The notes under the pieces were generated by a model. That model saw only the letters and a program-made list of their open reading frames with translations, was not told the origin of the DNA and did no database searches. Made by a program: the position numbers and the translations under genes. From a virus (lineage: Duplodnaviria; Heunggongvirae; Uroviricota; Caudoviricetes), in IMG/VR virus record IMGVR_UViG_2534681832_000034, positions 1 to 18,593 of that record: a stretch of DNA of 18,593 nt, one strand, 5' to 3'. Shown here one piece after another: positions 3,578 to 8,993 of this stretch; position 1 is the stretch's first letter; every line of letters begins with the position of its first letter.

Positions 3578-3606
3578 AATAAAAAAGCTCCCGAAGGAGC
3601 TTTAAA
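3578..3606. terminator. Bidirectional rho-independent terminator (end of minus-strand late operon; probable hok mRNA 3' end)
   Basis: Stem GCTCC (3587-3591), loop CGAA, GGAGC (3596-3600), flanked by A6 upstream and TTT downstream, so the minus-strand transcript ends hairpin + U6. Confidence 0.7.
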
Positions 3607-3622
3607 ATACAAGGGATGACTC

Positions 3623-4132
3623 TTAATCCCACTCAATCCAGTTGTAGACGATACGAAGTGACGGGCGCACAGCGGCAGTCACATCTTCGGTACTAAAGTC
3701 GATTGCATCACTGTAGATTTTGCAGTCCAACATTTCAATTGTTGTAGCAGCTTTTGTTACAGCGTTAACCCCGGAAGATTTGGATTCAGGGGTAGCAGCC
3801 ATCGTGATATCAACATAGTCCTTCGCCGCAATGCGATCCTTGATGAACTGAAGAATATCGCCTTCGATAGTCTCCACGCACTGGACCTGGATTTCCCCAG
3901 AGTTTCGAATTGGTCCGTGCTGGTTGAACTTCACACCATTCGGACCATAGTCCTCCACATCCTCGCGGGTCATTTCAGGAATTTGCGACGTGCGAACCAG
4001 TACGCTGATATCTTCATGGCCTGCAACAGTGAGCTGGAATTCAGAAGATACCAGTCGTTCGCCTTTGGCCGCGTTGGCAGTATAGCGGCCCTTAATAAAT
4101 TTACGGTTTCCCTTAGTGTTATTGTGCCCCAT
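3623..4132 (-). CDS. Late-operon structural/morphogenesis protein, 169 aa (function unassigned)
   Basis: ATG at 4132 (minus) with AAAGGA SD; TAA at 3623-3625; last gene before the terminator. Confidence 0.8.
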   Translation of the reverse strand: MGHNNTKGNRKFIKGRYTANAAKGERLVSSEFQLTVAGHEDISVLVRTSQIPEMTREDVEDYGPNGVKFNQHGPIRNSGEIQVQCVETIEGDILQFIKDRIAAKDYVDITMAATPESKSSGVNAVTKAATTIEMLDCKIYSDAIDFSTEDVTAAVRPSLRIVYNWIEWD

Positions 4133-4143
4133 ATAAAATCCTT

Positions 4144-4725
4144 TTACTGGAACGCCCGAACAATATCGGAGCTGTTATATATCGAAGAACCGGTCAACTG
4201 GAGGTTGACGGTGTTTTTCAGGAAATGCCCATTGCTGTCCCTGGGCGCATCGAGATCGAAACTTATGTCCTGGATAGCGACATCAATGATGTTGATCTGG
4301 CGACCAATGTTTAGCGTCACACGCTCCGGGATTCGACCACCAATACTGGCATCTTTAAGTTCCGGGCTAATCATCGCTGACAATGCGGCGATAGCTCCTG
4401 AAACCTCCGTGAATGGATCAAACAAAGCGATGAAAGTTACTGGCAGCGTGAAAGTTGGCGGTGTTCCCCCCTCCCAAACCATTAAGCTGTTCCAACGGGC
4501 CACCGACGTTGTTTCAGTACCAACCTGCGCAAAACCACTGAAGGCACCAGCAACAGACCCCATGGACATACCGGTAAACGGCGCTTCCCAATTCTGGGCC
4601 ATGTTCATTGCTGCCCCCTGGCTGATATATCCGGTAACCTGGTACTGAGAGTTCGTTAAAGTAACTTTCAGAAATGGCGATACACCGTCAGCCTGGCTGT
4701 AAACCCCATAAGGTATAGGTGCCAT
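4144..4725 (-). CDS. Late-operon structural/morphogenesis protein, 193 aa (function unassigned)
   Basis: ATG at 4725 (minus); Gly/Ala/Ser/Thr-rich composition typical of virion proteins; packed 11 nt upstream of the next gene. Confidence 0.8.
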   Translation of the reverse strand: MAPIPYGVYSQADGVSPFLKVTLTNSQYQVTGYISQGAAMNMAQNWEAPFTGMSMGSVAGAFSGFAQVGTETTSVARWNSLMVWEGGTPPTFTLPVTFIALFDPFTEVSGAIAALSAMISPELKDASIGGRIPERVTLNIGRQINIIDVAIQDISFDLDAPRDSNGHFLKNTVNLQLTGSSIYNSSDIVRAFQ

Positions 4726-4760
4726 TCAAGTTAAAGGCCGGAGTTCTCCGGCCTCCTCCT

Positions 4761-5576
4761 TTAGCCAAGGCGCTTACGGCGCAGTTTCATTGACTTTTTG
4801 CGGGCAAGTTTTGCCGCACCCGTCTGGGCTTTTCGACGCGCTTTTTTCAGCGCCGATTTTTGAGCCGCAGTCAGACGTTTTTTACGCAGGCGTTTACGGA
4901 TGAGTTTGATCTCACCGTTACGAACAACCTTCTTAAATGCTTCAGTCAGCATTTCATCAGAAGTGCCAGCAACAACAAACGCCGCTTCCAGTTCGTCACG
5001 GTCGTCGCTATCTAAACCAGCGATAGAGGCACCAACATCAGCAGCTGCGTCGTCGTCTTCATCGTCAGCCAGTGCTTCGATCAGGTCATCATCTACACCG
5101 CATGCTGCGAGGAAGTCAGCAACATTTGCCCATGCTTCGTTATAGGCATCGTCCTGTTCTTCTGTAACTTCGGAGTCGTCGTCATCAGAGATACCAGCGA
5201 TAGCCTGAACGAAACCATCAAGGGAGTCGAAAGTCAGATCACCGCTATCAGCCCAGGCGAAAACGGCGTCGGCCGCATCACTCAACGCATTCTGCATAGC
5301 ACTTCTATTTGCAGCTTCCAGAATCATCTGGTGCGCCTGTTCGACGGTCCATTCTTTACCGTCTTTCCCTTCCAGGATTTGCTCAGGAGCCGGGGCAGAT
5401 GGAACGTTATCGTTAGTCTGTGCCGCCGGTTCCGGATTATTATTAATAACCGGATCTGTTGGCTGTTCGGCGCTTGCTCGGGCAGACTCCATCAGCTGCA
5501 CAGGATCAGAGTTCAAAGCGAAACGAGACAGTCCATTCCCCAAAAATGCCCCGGATTGAAAAAAGTTTTTGCTCAT
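4761..5576 (-). CDS. Highly acidic protein with poly-basic C-terminal tail, 271 aa (possible scaffold or internal/DNA-associated virion protein)
   Basis: ATG at 5576 (minus) with AAGGGA SD; long Asp/Glu runs (DDDDSEVTEEQDD, DDEDDDAAAD) followed by a C-terminal ~50 aa rich in Lys/Arg. Confidence 0.8.
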   Translation of the reverse strand: MSKNFFQSGAFLGNGLSRFALNSDPVQLMESARASAEQPTDPVINNNPEPAAQTNDNVPSAPAPEQILEGKDGKEWTVEQAHQMILEAANRSAMQNALSDAADAVFAWADSGDLTFDSLDGFVQAIAGISDDDDSEVTEEQDDAYNEAWANVADFLAACGVDDDLIEALADDEDDDAAADVGASIAGLDSDDRDELEAAFVVAGTSDEMLTEAFKKVVRNGEIKLIRKRLRKKRLTAAQKSALKKARRKAQTGAAKLARKKSMKLRRKRLG

Positions 5577-5585
5577 TGTATTCCC

Positions 5586-7175
5586 TTACTTAATAAGCAG
5601 CGGTACGCCCTGGATACGACGGGCTACGCCAGTCGGGCAGCAGGCCCAGACTACTTCCCATTTATCGAATTCCGCCTGCGTAACTTTCAGCACATACGGT
5701 TCTGTACCGTCAGCATCAGGATCACGAGGAGCCACCAGAGCGCCGGAGGCGACAAAGCGATCTAAAAGTTTGGTCATCCCTTTAGTCAGGCCAGCCGCAG
5801 TAATACCGTCCGGGCTATGCTTCATCTGTCGGGCTAACTGGACAAAGAAACGGCTGATTGCATTCATCAGGGATGGGACGTGCTGGAAGTGCAGATAGTT
5901 ATCCTGCGTGCAGCAAGTTAAAGCATCGTCGATGATCATCTGGCCAGAGGTGCCAACAGATACTTTATTGAGACGGCCCTTGACCATTGCTTCTTCGTCC
6001 GGGGTATCTTCCGGATACAGCGGTTGAATTGACGCACGAGCAATGACGGCACGTTCTTCACCAGCCGGTGAGTAATGCCAACCGCCGACATCAGAGTTTT
6101 TCTTGACGCCACGAGCTTTCGCCGCATACGCCACGCCAGACAGACCAAAGACCACACGGGATTGGGTCCATTTGTCTTTGCAGGAGAACGGGTAGTGATA
6201 GACAGCACAGCTTACATAATCGGTACCAAGTAAACCGGTATCTTCAACAGCAGAGAGCGCTTCCGTATACGTCAATGTCGGTTTGACATCAAAGAAGCCA
6301 TCAATCAGGCGATCAGAACAGATATTACCTAACGCGGTGATCGCCGCATTGTCATAGCAACCCAGGCCGAGAACAGCGGTGTACATGTACGGCGCATTGT
6401 TCAGCACCTTAACCGCACGCAGGTACGCAGCGGTTGAGATTTTCGACTGATCACCGTTGGTACCACCAGTGAACGCCAGCGATTTTTTATTTGTTACTTT
6501 CGCCGTCGAAATCAGCTCTTCATTAACAACCGCGCGCAGATATTTAGAACGGGCTTCCAGAGCCGTAGGCAGATAACACAAGCGGCCCATGTCATCTTTC
6601 GCTTCTTCCGCCAAAGACACAGTGTGTGTCTCCAGGGTCGTTACCACGCCGAGCGAAGTCGTCTGGGTCAGTTTTAAGAGGAAGCGTTCATTACCCGCGC
6701 TGTCCGCTGTTGCCGTTTCGATGGTTAACTCACGGGTAGGTGAAATACACGGATCACCATCATCAACGTAGATAGCAAAGGCTTCGCCACTATCAAGTTC
6801 AATTTCAGAACCGTATGGCAACGCACTGTAAGCCGGTTCGCCTGATTCATCGAACATAATAATCGGGAACTTCGCATCATCCGGAACAGCACGAACAACA
6901 TAACCTGACGTTTGCTGAATAGCTTCGTATACATGGCGAATTGGTTCGAACTGTGAGCCGGAAGACGGCTTCAGCGGTTCGCCGAGAACATCTTTGTAAT
7001 TGGACTCAGTAACCGCAAGAACAGTAAACGGCTTGCCACGCGCAAATACGCCAATACCAGCCCACAAGCTGCTATTTAATGCAACACCGGTAGATAACGT
7101 CGAATCGGCATTGATCGGGCTAACCGCGACGCCGGATGCATTACCTAATGACTGTTGAATTGAATATTGAGACAT
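5586..7175 (-). CDS. Large late structural protein, 529 aa (possibly contractile-tail sheath; P1 gene-22-like by position)
   Basis: ATG at 7175 (minus) with AGGGAAAG SD; TAA 5586-5588; composition typical of virion structural proteins. The sheath assignment is a weak guess from position and a C-terminal ...GAL... segment. Confidence 0.8.
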   Translation of the reverse strand: MSQYSIQQSLGNASGVAVSPINADSTLSTGVALNSSLWAGIGVFARGKPFTVLAVTESNYKDVLGEPLKPSSGSQFEPIRHVYEAIQQTSGYVVRAVPDDAKFPIIMFDESGEPAYSALPYGSEIELDSGEAFAIYVDDGDPCISPTRELTIETATADSAGNERFLLKLTQTTSLGVVTTLETHTVSLAEEAKDDMGRLCYLPTALEARSKYLRAVVNEELISTAKVTNKKSLAFTGGTNGDQSKISTAAYLRAVKVLNNAPYMYTAVLGLGCYDNAAITALGNICSDRLIDGFFDVKPTLTYTEALSAVEDTGLLGTDYVSCAVYHYPFSCKDKWTQSRVVFGLSGVAYAAKARGVKKNSDVGGWHYSPAGEERAVIARASIQPLYPEDTPDEEAMVKGRLNKVSVGTSGQMIIDDALTCCTQDNYLHFQHVPSLMNAISRFFVQLARQMKHSPDGITAAGLTKGMTKLLDRFVASGALVAPRDPDADGTEPYVLKVTQAEFDKWEVVWACCPTGVARRIQGVPLLIK

Positions 7176-7190
7176 AACTTTCCCTGTTAT

Positions 7191-7209
7191 GCGCCCCGCA
7201 CGGGGGCGC
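7191..7209 (-). promoter_or_regulatory. GC-rich intercistronic stem-loop without U-tract
   Basis: GCGCCCCG / CGGGGGCGC inverted repeat between the stop of the 7236-8942 gene and the start at 7175. Confidence 0.5.
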
Positions 7210-7235: not shown

Positions 7236-8942
7236 TTACTCAGAGTCACCGGCATCAATCGTGTCGCCGCTTATGAAGTTAAGCCCGCCTTTTTTGGCCA
7301 TTGTCAGCGTTACACGAGTGAAGTAATCAGCGCCGTTGCGTGGGTGCATATCGTTGATAGCCGAACCCCACAGTGTGGTACGGTTGACCAGCGCCGGAGT
7401 GGTCGGATGCTGGAACGGGATAGCCGGGACAGCATCACCAGTCACGAAGCCTGCTTTACCCGGATTTTCATCACGGACGTAGCACAGCACATCCATCGAG
7501 CTGAACTGAATGTTCTCTGTCGTTAAGTTCTTACAAATACCAGCAGGTACTTCGTACACTTTCACGTTACCGAACAGGGTACCGATGTAGTGAACATACG
7601 GAGTCTGGATATAGTCTTCGGCTGGCTGGAAGAAATCCTTCGGCAACTGTTTGAAGAAAGATGCTGCATCAGCACCAGCAAACATCCCCATCGCACCAGA
7701 AGATTTAACGCGCTCAATAATGTCGCGATATACAGTCTGGAATTTGCCACGAATGATGGTTGCCCATACATTAAAGGACTGGTTAACCGGCAGAGCGATG
7801 TCAAAGGTGTCGGTCGCAAGAGTACGCCAGATCATGATGCGAAGACGCAGCATATCCTGTTCATGAGACAGGTATTCCTTCAGGGTGCGGAACTGTAGGG
7901 AACCCAGGTCCAGACCAAATTCACGCTGTGCTTCATACGCCGCCTGTACCGTGTGCTCAGCCGCGATAACGAACTGACTTGGGAACAGGGTGTATTTCTT
8001 CATTTCGTGGTTGATCAGCGGGATCAGCTCAGGTGCGGCTTCAATATTGATTTCCGTCTCAATTGCGATCTCAGTGCCTTTATCCGGCGCTTTGGAGAAC
8101 GACAGGGCAATCTGACCAATGTTGTAGTTCAGAGAGCAGGTAACAGTGATTTGCTCACCAGCAGCATTAGTAAACGAGTGAAGTAGGCTGCCGGAACCGT
8201 TATCAACAACAGACTTAATACGGTTAACGTAGATGTTAGTGCGACCTTTTCGGATTGGTACATTCTGGCCTTCGAAGTCTTCCATCTTGAAGGTTGCGGT
8301 TTTGCTGGTGCCATCGGAGCTTGCCACCAGCACATAGCGGCGACGTAACTGGCTGTACACACCAACGGATTGCATGTCCAGAACATCACCAGCAGCATAA
8401 GAACCAAAAGAGGAACCTGCCACGTTAAAGACTTCATAGATGTCGGACTGGTCACGCGTAACCGGAATGAAGGTACACGCATCAGCGGTAGCTGCCCCCA
8501 ACTGAACAGGCAGGATCATCGCGAGGAATAAAGGCAGACGCATAACACCGTCAGAAACGCTCATCATCTCTGCTGCGACGGATTCCAGCATCGCTTTATT
8601 AGTGGCATCCATGCTATTGCGGGTGGACTCAATCAGGCAGTTTTCCAGCGTCTGGTGGCAGGAGGCCAGAATTTCCGGACGCGGCATAGATTTATGTGCT
8701 GCGGCGTAGTCAGCCAGTGCACTTGCCCACGCTGTAGCGATTTGAGCGGTGGCATTATCAGAGATACCCGCAAAAACCGGGTCTTTACGTGCAGCTTCAA
8801 GGATAGATGCGGCACGCGCGGCATCATCTTTAATGAATTGGTTATCAGTACCGAACTGCGCAGTGCTTGCCCAGCCAAGCACAGCTTTAGAGCGTTTTGC
8901 GATATCTGCAATACGATTCTGGTATTCGCGTAAGTTACTCAA
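7236..8942 (-). CDS. Probable major head (capsid) protein precursor with N-terminal helical delta-like region (P1 gene-23-like by position)
   Basis: First gene of the late operon, directly beside parB. Proposed start is TTG at 8942 (minus) with AAGGAAG SD at 6-nt spacing; the ORF track's start at 8963 is also TTG and has no SD. No in-frame ATG for about 90 codons. N-terminal ~140 aa is Ala-rich and helical, then a Gly/Ser/Thr-rich body. Confidence 0.7.
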   Translation of the reverse strand: MSNLREYQNRIADIAKRSKAVLGWASTAQFGTDNQFIKDDAARAASILEAARKDPVFAGISDNATAQIATAWASALADYAAAHKSMPRPEILASCHQTLENCLIESTRNSMDATNKAMLESVAAEMMSVSDGVMRLPLFLAMILPVQLGAATADACTFIPVTRDQSDIYEVFNVAGSSFGSYAAGDVLDMQSVGVYSQLRRRYVLVASSDGTSKTATFKMEDFEGQNVPIRKGRTNIYVNRIKSVVDNGSGSLLHSFTNAAGEQITVTCSLNYNIGQIALSFSKAPDKGTEIAIETEINIEAAPELIPLINHEMKKYTLFPSQFVIAAEHTVQAAYEAQREFGLDLGSLQFRTLKEYLSHEQDMLRLRIMIWRTLATDTFDIALPVNQSFNVWATIIRGKFQTVYRDIIERVKSSGAMGMFAGADAASFFKQLPKDFFQPAEDYIQTPYVHYIGTLFGNVKVYEVPAGICKNLTTENIQFSSMDVLCYVRDENPGKAGFVTGDAVPAIPFQHPTTPALVNRTTLWGSAINDMHPRNGADYFTRVTLTMAKKGGLNFISGDTIDAGDSE

Positions 8943-8993
8943 TTTACTCTTCCTTAAACACAAGGCACTTGTGTGAATCCCTTTTCGGAAGAG

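Follow-up and report, generated by a model that had tools for sequence, protein, structure and literature searches.

The junction between gene 21 and pmgG in the late operon of P1-type phage-plasmids probably functions as a split (non-contiguous) ribosome-binding site, in which a strong Shine-Dalgarno (SD) sequence is separated from the AUG start codon of pmgG by a stable RNA hairpin. The junction was analysed in the IMG/VR virus record IMGVR_UViG_2534681832_000034, a stretch of 18,593 nucleotides (nt) that is referred to below as the window. The window is a relative of phage P1, namely a P1-type phage-plasmid; P1 and its relatives (P7, SJ46, RCS47, and others) show 95–99.9% identity to it over bases 4100-5600. 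The split reading, which was reached by comparing sequences, is favoured because across the clades the SD lies either on one side of the hairpin or on the other, because the effective spacing would come to 9–11 nt, and because the looped-out segment is nearly of the size known from phage T4.

The minus strand of the window reads, from 4763 to 4723, TAA AGGAGGA GGCCGGA GAAC TCCGGCC TTTAACTTGA ATG, and the gap between gene 21 and pmgG is 35 nt. The elements of the junction are the following.

4754-4761, minus strand: SD motif AAGGAGGA, whose AAGGAGG (4761-4755) is complementary to the 3′ end of 16S ribosomal RNA (from the sequence).
4747-4753, minus strand: 5′ arm of the hairpin, GGCCGGA, to which A4754 can add an eighth pair (from the folds and the list of perfect hairpins).
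4743-4746, minus strand: tetraloop GAAC, unconstrained in sequence (from the comparison of loops among relatives).
4736-4742, minus strand: 3′ arm of the hairpin, UCCGGCC, to which U4735 can add an eighth pair (from the folds and the list of perfect hairpins).
4726-4735, minus strand: A/U-rich 10-nt spacer UUUAACUUGA, which contains no SD and whose last three bases (4728-4726) form an in-frame TGA (from the sequence and the anti-SD scan).

The layout of SD, hairpin, and AUG that a preliminary description had proposed for positions 4726-4763 is real, as the minus-strand sequence and the folding statistics indicate. The SD shares its first A with the end of the gene 21 stop codon, and the duplex of AAGGAGG (4761-4755) with ACCUCCUUA has an energy of −11.6 kcal/mol. 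The hairpin folds into a stem of 7 base pairs (bp; 4753-4747 with 4742-4736) closed by the GAAC loop, with 8 Watson-Crick pairs if A4754-U4735 is included. The 41-nt junction reaches −20.7 kcal/mol versus −8.2 ± 2.5 in 200 dinucleotide shuffles, none of which is as stable (z = −5.1), and a fold of the 101-nt context gives z = −3.2. The core stem has an energy of −13.0 kcal/mol and a pairing probability of about 1 in three context sizes (121–275 nt). Two details of the preliminary description had to be corrected. The hairpin was drawn with a 2-nt AA loop, which is sterically impossible, the loop being the GAAC tetraloop on a stem of 7–8 bp; and the third “GG” of AGGAGGAGG, counted there as part of the SD, constitutes the first two bases of the stem, which leaves (A)AGGAGG(A) as the free SD.

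The last G of GGAGG (4755) and the A of the AUG (4725) are 29 nt apart in linear sequence, in agreement with the distance of about 30 nt given earlier. The upstream SD is, as had been stated, the sole good one: within the 10-nt 3′ spacer there is no 6-mer able to pair with the anti-SD, the best reaching +1.3 kcal/mol. With the 18–20-nt hairpin removed, the effective spacing becomes 9–11 nt. The motif AGGAGG by itself is not enriched in the window (6 matches versus 5.8 expected), therefore the significance of the site rests on its arrangement and conservation and not on the motif count. The hairpin sequence occurs a single time in the window and is not a repeated element. A search of Rfam gave no family match at the junction; the RAGATH-25 hit on the opposite strand is at chance level (15.6 bits versus a gathering score of 49, E = 0.34).

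A survey of the 21/pmgG junction covered about 140 loci from genomes, IMG/VR contigs, specific protein clusters, phages, and plasmids. A GC-rich hairpin is present in 35 of the 36 distinct junctions first collected, 5–11 nt past the gene 21 stop, with core energies from −9.7 to −22.7 kcal/mol over the 35 junctions. The stems vary by clade, examples being GGCCGGA, GCCGCCGG, GCAGCCGG, GCCACCAGC, GGCCACCA, and GCCCGCCAGC. RNAalifold, applied to 24 junctions, predicts a consensus helix of 7 bp in which 5 of the 7 pairs show compensatory double changes, a covariation signal that is based on an imperfect MAFFT alignment. The loops of relatives include GAAC, GAGC, TTTC, TTCC, TTAA, GCGA, ATTG, TTCG, and ATA; such free variation argues against a sequence-specific protein ligand. 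The sense fold is more stable than the antisense fold in 32 of the 35 junctions, since the G·U pairs fall on the mRNA strand, which points to an RNA element and not to a DNA palindrome. A DNA palindrome or protein-binding site was considered and rejected on the same grounds, the stems covarying instead of keeping their sequence. The hairpin is thus an RNA-level element of the sense strand under purifying selection.

The hairpin-bearing junctions fall into two types according to the side of the stem on which the SD lies. Type A, with the SD on the 5′ side, includes the window, P1, five close P1-like variants (L066 with its repeat in E. albertii L182, L069, L070, L072), P7, and SJ46, as well as Cronobacter phage JK004 and phage-plasmids of Salmonella, Klebsiella, and S. 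arizonae. It comprises 13 distinct sequences, with that of S. arizonae (L183) included; the E. albertii junction (L182) is identical to that of L066, and the JK004 junction to that of L170. GGAG or GGAGG stands 0–1 nt 5′ of the stem with pairing energies of −6.9 to −9.8 kcal/mol, and GGAG is kept in all 13 junctions. On the 3′ side of the stem nothing SD-like is seen in any type-A junction, the best 6-mer being +0.4 kcal/mol or weaker. The geometry is almost constant. The distance from the stem to the AUG is 10 nt, with 9 nt in L173 and 11 nt in L070, where the outer stem pair is lost; the best SD 6-mer lies 27–28 nt before the start in all lineages; and the stem begins 7–8 nt past the stop, or 10 nt in L173. 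Counted on the 7-bp core stem, the effective spacing is 10–11 nt in all type-A lineages. In L170/JK004 the N-terminus of PmgG is two codons shorter, and the stem-to-AUG distance is still 10 nt.

Type B consists of 23 sequences together with coliphage D6 and the Xenorhabdus szentirmaii locus L008. In this type the SD is located 3′ of the stem, 2–8 nt before the start, and the 5′ flank holds a weak SD or none. Every hairpin-bearing lineage that lacks a 5′ SD has a 3′ SD. In the PmgG tree type A is monophyletic, with PmgG identity down to 68%; its sister clade, Pantoea L007/L177, is type B, and so are the deeper clades. The hairpin is absent from the metagenomic locus L176 and from the Vibrio plasmids L180 and L181, in which the gap between gene 21 and pmgG is 4–13 nt and, in L176 (GGGG) and L180 (AAGGG), an SD-like run stands beside the start. 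Judging from these hairpin-free loci with their tight gaps, the hairpin appears to be an acquisition of the enterobacterial P1/D6 group.

Relatives with a conventional SD have the hairpin as well, from which we infer that it predates the split arrangement. The simplest history would start from a tight hairpin-free junction, to which a hairpin was added 5′ of the SD; later, where the P1 clade begins, the SD would have moved once to the far side of the hairpin. The hairpin itself probably originated as one of the intercistronic hairpins that are frequent in late operons of P1 and D6. The junctions of loci L090-L109 carry SD-like runs on both sides, AGGGAU or AAGGGG on the 5′ side (−4.8 to −6.3 kcal/mol) and UGAGGA on the 3′ side (−5.6 kcal/mol). 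This clade may represent an intermediate state of an SD changing sides.

Selection on the type-A geometry was assessed in seven type-A lineages as mean pairwise identity, with the following values.

Third codon positions of the last 25 codons of gene 21: 0.53.
Loops: 0.29.
3′ spacer: 0.42.
Each stem arm: 0.93.
7-nt 5′ flank, column by column: 0.47.

The 5′ SD, the stem, and the 10-nt distance are thus kept in a clade in which loops, spacers, and synonymous sites are diverged close to saturation, the third codon positions serving as the neutral baseline. Despite the identity of 0.47, GGAG is found in the 5′ flank of all seven lineages, shifted by one register in the window. Its retention in a diverged flank suggests that the motif is maintained and not the exact sequence. 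The pair that closes the loop forms a compensatory series, the one instance of covariation within type A, being A-U in the window, G·U in P1, and G-C in the Salmonella lineages. Among the stem substitutions in close relatives, two of three keep a wobble pair and one of three breaks the outer pair.

According to the split reading, the 30S ribosomal subunit would bind the strong SD AAGGAGG directly 3′ of the gene 21 stop. When the hairpin forms, the linear SD-AUG distance of 29 nt would shrink to an effective 9–11 nt, and, with the hairpin looped out, the SD-bound 30S subunit would place the pmgG AUG in the P site. The conserved 5′ GGAG would accordingly be the SD used for pmgG, and the hairpin would be needed for such use.

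Such sites, termed split or non-contiguous (PMC7297116), are known from phage T4. At T4 gene 38 a hairpin takes the spacing from 22 to 5 nt (Gold 1988; PMC3014915). At T4 gene 25 the spacing goes from 27 to 11 nt (Nivinskas et al. 1999; Malys & Nivinskas 2009, as reported in PMC3014915). In T4, mutations that destabilise the hairpin lower translation (PMC3014915; PMC7297116). The junction of T4 genes 26 and 25 is much like that of P1-type plasmids: the SD and the AUG are 27 nt apart in T4 versus 29 nt here, the effective distance is about 11 nt, and a stable hairpin of 16–18 nt lies wholly between the two. The looped-out segment is of nearly the same size, 16–17 nt in T4 versus 18–20 nt in the window. 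Both junctions are intercistronic, belong to a late tail or baseplate operon, and precede the gene for a low-copy baseplate product; both arrangements are also confined to one sub-clade, with a conventional site in distant relatives. The two differ in several respects. There is no sequence homology, the phage family is another, and so is the gene, pmgG being gp48-like and not a gp25 gene. The P1-type hairpin occurs also in relatives with a conventional SD, whereas distant relatives of T4 lack the arrangement, according to the review. The T4 gene 25 site has been proven by mutagenesis, lacZ fusions, and dimethyl sulfate probing, while the evidence at the pmgG junction is comparative. As to T4 gene 38, a late tail-fibre assembly gene, the likeness is that a hairpin rescues a non-functional linear spacing; the effective spacing is 5 nt versus 9–11 nt at pmgG, and homology is again lacking. 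In E. coli, thrS and rpmE (PMC7297116) similarly demonstrate that the ribosome tolerates a stable stem-loop in the initiation region and that this stem-loop arranges the recognition elements. Unlike the intercistronic pmgG site with its free loops, they are operators in 5′ untranslated regions bound by an autoregulatory protein.

The setting of the junction bears on how much PmgG is needed. According to the P1 records, the late operon has the order 23 (major capsid), 22 (sheath), 21, pmgG, bplB, and in the P1 annotation a predicted late promoter, LP23, drives 23-22-21-pmgG-bplB. In the window, all the genes from 23 to bplB are on the minus strand, with coordinates taken from the list of open reading frames (ORFs).

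About 7236-8963, minus strand: gene 23 (ORF list).
5586-7175, minus strand: gene 22 (ORF list).
4761-5576, minus strand: gene 21 homologue of 271 amino acids (aa), with the TAA stop at 4763-4761 (ORF list, translation, P1 annotation, PHROG 1053).
4144-4725, minus strand: pmgG, 193 codons, with the AUG at 4725-4723 (ORF list, PHROG 1114, N-terminal alignment of 16 homologues, PMC9024508, bioRxiv 10.1101/2025.07.21.665459).
3623-4132, minus strand: bplB (ORF list).
3584-3603, minus strand: canonical intrinsic terminator AAAGCUCC-UUCG-GGAGCUUU followed by UUUAUUU, at the end of the operon 3′ of bplB (terminator scan, fold).

PmgG is described as an essential virion protein related to T4 gp48 (PMC9024508) and has been modelled as a hexameric ring, i.e., six copies, between the tube and the hub (bioRxiv 10.1101/2025.07.21.665459). 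In the same preprint the sheath has 322 subunits and the tube is made of BplB. The gene for a six-copy product is thus flanked in the operon by genes for very abundant proteins. The SD being part-paired to the spacer, translation of pmgG would probably be modest, and this would be fitting for a baseplate protein of six copies whose gene lies between those of products required in hundreds of copies.

This part-pairing is also the main difficulty of the split reading. Folding, which had been proposed as a check, recovers a stable hairpin between the SD and the AUG, and the predicted helix reaches into the SD: the minimum-energy fold prolongs the stem by GGA:UUU and then AAG:CUU. The parallel with T4 genes 38 and 25 drawn in the preliminary description stands as regards the conserved SD, stem, and 10-nt distance and the opposite side of the SD in sister clades, and is qualified by the folding prediction of an SD that is part-paired. 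Several further points weigh against a split site. In the window, 4 of the 6 AGGAGG bases pair with the 3′ spacer according to the partition function; across the type-A lineages, the best SD 6-mer has a mean unpaired probability of 0.09–0.50. In P1 proper, freeing the SD would cost 13.1 kcal/mol, which exceeds the 11.6 kcal/mol obtained from SD binding. With the SD predicted to be paired, the structure could dampen initiation instead of enabling it. An effective spacing of 9–11 nt plus the width of the helix is at the long end of the working range, and a six-copy protein may need only SD-independent initiation at a largely unpaired AUG. Covariation within type A amounts to a single compensatory pair and is not significant, its score being reached by 68 of 500 shuffles; the case for covariation thus rests on the wider family. 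Finally, type A arose once in the PmgG tree, so its lineages are not independent replicates.

An alternative, which appears quite improbable to us, takes the structure as a negative element. The extended helix, formed by the SD with the 3′ spacer and in P1 also with codons 2-3, would hide the SD and keep pmgG expression low; ribosomes finishing gene 21 would open the outer pairs, giving translational coupling in which the stop-adjacent SD holds the post-termination 30S subunit and the refolded core hairpin delivers the AUG. Predicted pairing indeed takes up 4 of the 6 SD positions and, in all type-A lineages, the two bases closest to the stem; a low-copy product is also expected. The SD-freeing cost of 13.1 kcal/mol in P1 is in line with this alternative: in P1 proper (L001 4841-4890, compared with window 4760-4711) codons 2-3 are GCU CCU, for which the fold predicts pairing across the hairpin with the SD AGGAG. 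In the window and most P1-like plasmids these codons are GCA CCU, and the cost is 7.3 kcal/mol. The SD begins inside the stop codon, and a stop-to-stem distance of 7–8 nt would put the base of the stem at the mRNA entry of the terminating ribosome, judging from general ribosome geometry. However, the outer pairs, G·U and A-U, are weak and show no supporting covariation. Moreover, in 7 of 8 lineages freeing the SD costs 2.0–7.3 kcal/mol versus 7.4–11.6 kcal/mol gained by SD:anti-SD pairing, with the core hairpin persisting, so that binding outweighs opening. Complete melting of the hairpin would leave the SD useless at 29 nt from the AUG. The model of a negative element still needs the core to be looped out and hence describes a regulated split site, not a true alternative to one.

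Opening of the SD in the split site could depend on ribosomes finishing gene 21. A more elaborate proposal goes further. The SD in the gene 21 stop would capture the just-terminated 30S subunit and the hairpin would bridge it to the AUG 35 nt away, i.e., a long-range termination-reinitiation by RNA looping that would have evolved when the SD switched sides of a pre-existing stabiliser hairpin and that would make PmgG a fixed small fraction of gp21 translation. We consider this proposal distinctly unlikely in its entirety. Classical stop-start coupling was rejected, because with a gap of 35 nt the stop and start codons neither overlap nor lie within a few nt of each other; with the hairpin formed, the effective gap would be about 17 nt.

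Another explanation assigns the hairpin to mRNA stability, processing, or insulation only, either as a barrier to 3′ exonucleases for 23-22-21 or as a 5′ protective stem for pmgG-bplB. In that case translation of pmgG would need no SD: initiation would be weak and SD-independent, at the unpaired AUG, or would rely on ribosomes coming from gene 21, and AGGAGG would be irrelevant to pmgG or otherwise used. The hairpin is present with the SD on the 5′ or the 3′ side and thus serves some function apart from the split. The AUG and the two preceding bases are mostly unpaired (probability of at least 0.9), and six copies of PmgG per virion suffice. Both P1 and the window have a similar GC-rich hairpin devoid of a U-tract in the 23/22 gap, and five gaps of the D6 late operon contain such hairpins as well. 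The one in the window is as follows.

7191-7209, minus strand: second intercistronic hairpin, GCGCCCC-CGUGC-GGGGCGC, with G-C pairs only, between genes 23 and 22 (list of perfect hairpins, fold).

It has no U-tract, and a weak SD (GGGAAAG) lies 3′ of its stem. Among the perfect stems of at least 7 bp in the window (18.6 kb), the 23/22 and 21/pmgG hairpins have the highest G-C fraction. In D6 (L178, NC_050154.1, 301-4322) each of the five late-operon gaps contains a GC-rich hairpin, followed in four of the five, including 21/pmgG, by an SD-like motif and a start. Intercistronic hairpins thus look general to late operons of the P1/D6 type, and an exonuclease barrier or a structural insulator is a plausible ancestral role of the hairpin. 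Known intercistronic stabiliser hairpins and terminators are alike in having a GC-rich stem-loop just past a stop that recurs at several operon junctions. They differ in that the pmgG hairpin has no conserved U-tract, so it is no terminator, and in that a putative stabiliser role offers no explanation of the placement of the SD. A role limited to stability leaves three facts unexplained: the retention of GGAG beside the stem while the surroundings, loops, and spacer have an identity of 0.29–0.47, the 10-nt stem-to-AUG distance despite a two-codon shift of the N-terminus, and the 3′ SD in every hairpin lineage that lacks a 5′ one. The ancestral part of this explanation is compatible with a split ribosome-binding site, the conflict being only over the SD being unused, and that pmgG does not use it seems unlikely.

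The preliminary description had also suggested that the same hairpin acts as an intercistronic attenuator, and this suggestion finds no support. An intrinsic (Rho-independent) terminator or attenuator would lower transcription into pmgG and bplB. The GC-rich 7–8-bp stem with a tetraloop is followed in the window by UUUAACUU (5 U in 8 nt), and AUUUU or GUUU follows the stem in L110, L111, L116, and L175. The terminator scan, however, makes no call at the junction, yet it calls the canonical terminator 3′ of bplB. The U-tract is short and unconserved: type-A junctions have three U at most directly after the stem, and many relatives have one U or none (AAUGAGG, AUGCCGG, UAUCAGG, AGGGGUG). The downstream gene bplB encodes the major tail tube protein, needed in as many copies as the sheath (322), which would make attenuation at 21/pmgG counter-productive. 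A terminator at this position is therefore highly improbable.

Two other candidates were tried and rejected. An enhancer of the epsilon type was considered in view of the resemblance of the spacer UUAACUUGA to the T7 gene 10 epsilon sequence, UUAACUUUA; the type-A spacers are not conserved and differ from one another (TTATTGACAG, TTGAATTATC, TTAACCTGAT, TACATTGCA). Recoding (readthrough or frameshift) promoted by a hairpin 7 nt past the stop was rejected because a ribosome reading through the TAA would gain 9 codons before the next TAA, and because the TGA at 4728-4726 shuts the pmgG frame. No slippery heptamer precedes the gene 21 stop.

The AUG at 4725 is the true start of pmgG. It is secure because the TGA at 4728-4726, in the pmgG frame, closes this frame directly 5′ of the AUG and because the N-terminus is conserved among homologues. 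Within the frame, Met does not recur until codon 40. The starts of sixteen homologues, with identities down to 44%, all fall no more than 3 codons from this AUG, and G7, D13, S16, and K20 are invariant. An alternative pmgG start, or a small ORF served by the SD, was rejected as there is no start codon 5–12 nt past the SD. A TTG occurs at 4729-4727, outside the pmgG frame, and the reading frame it opens has just 13 codons.

Public annotation of pmgG is uneven. For E. albertii pEA50_2 (L182, 401-979), RefSeq gives a 79-aa pmgG call and an antisense ORF, where tblastn finds an intact frame of 193 codons. The protein clusters P0027-P0029 and P0032 consist of truncated PmgG calls of 114–135 aa. The lack of a canonical ribosome-binding site at the true start may cause such split or truncated annotation. 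Gene finders that score ribosome-binding sites at fixed spacing may miss the pmgG start, and truncated pmgG calls are common in public annotation. In D6 the annotated pmgG start (ATG 3195; L178:3177-3197) is probably six codons short: the homologous N-terminus MICGAIMPDG starts at TTG 3177, with GGGAGA 8 nt upstream. In L008 (Xenorhabdus szentirmaii, ~2580-2640), the pmgG frame stops after 16 codons and the similarity resumes at residue 16 in another frame, with the junction hairpin and the 3′ SD still present. This suggests that L008 is a decaying prophage-plasmid.

Among the eight papers that mention pmgG, none appears from its title and abstract to address the ribosome-binding site of the gene, and the pmgG passages of a preprint on RNA sequencing of P1 in a Δhfq background contain nothing on the 21/pmgG junction. 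Most likely, the pmgG junction is a new natural example of a T4-type split ribosome-binding site. Proven natural sites of this kind are few, T4 genes 38 and 25 being the textbook cases, and the present arrangement sits in phage P1, a classic genetic tool. Of the 892 plasmid records in PLSDB that match PmgG, most contain this arrangement, and 695 are at least 90% identical to the window PmgG. What is new is that sister clades with a host species in common carry the SD on opposite sides of a homologous hairpin. P1 and D6 are such a case in E. coli; they constitute a natural experiment, and swaps of their junctions could test the limits of loop-out by the 30S subunit. The arrangement also shows one way in which a six-copy baseplate protein could be under-produced from an operon of proteins made in hundreds of copies.

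Two minor observations concern the products of the flanking genes. The gene 21 product, gp21, is a strongly acidic protein of 271 aa with an extremely basic C-terminal tail (KKRLTAAQKSALKKARRKAQTGAAKLARKKSMKLRRKRLG), assigned to PHROG 1053 (function unknown). It has no Pfam match and is not mentioned in the P1 virion-proteome paper, which was searched for it; its old label “baseplate or tail tube” looks doubtful. PmgG, in turn, is labelled “head morphogenesis” by PHROG 1114 and RefSeq, and HHpred and cryo-electron microscopy work describes it as a gp48-like ring between the tail tube and the baseplate hub.

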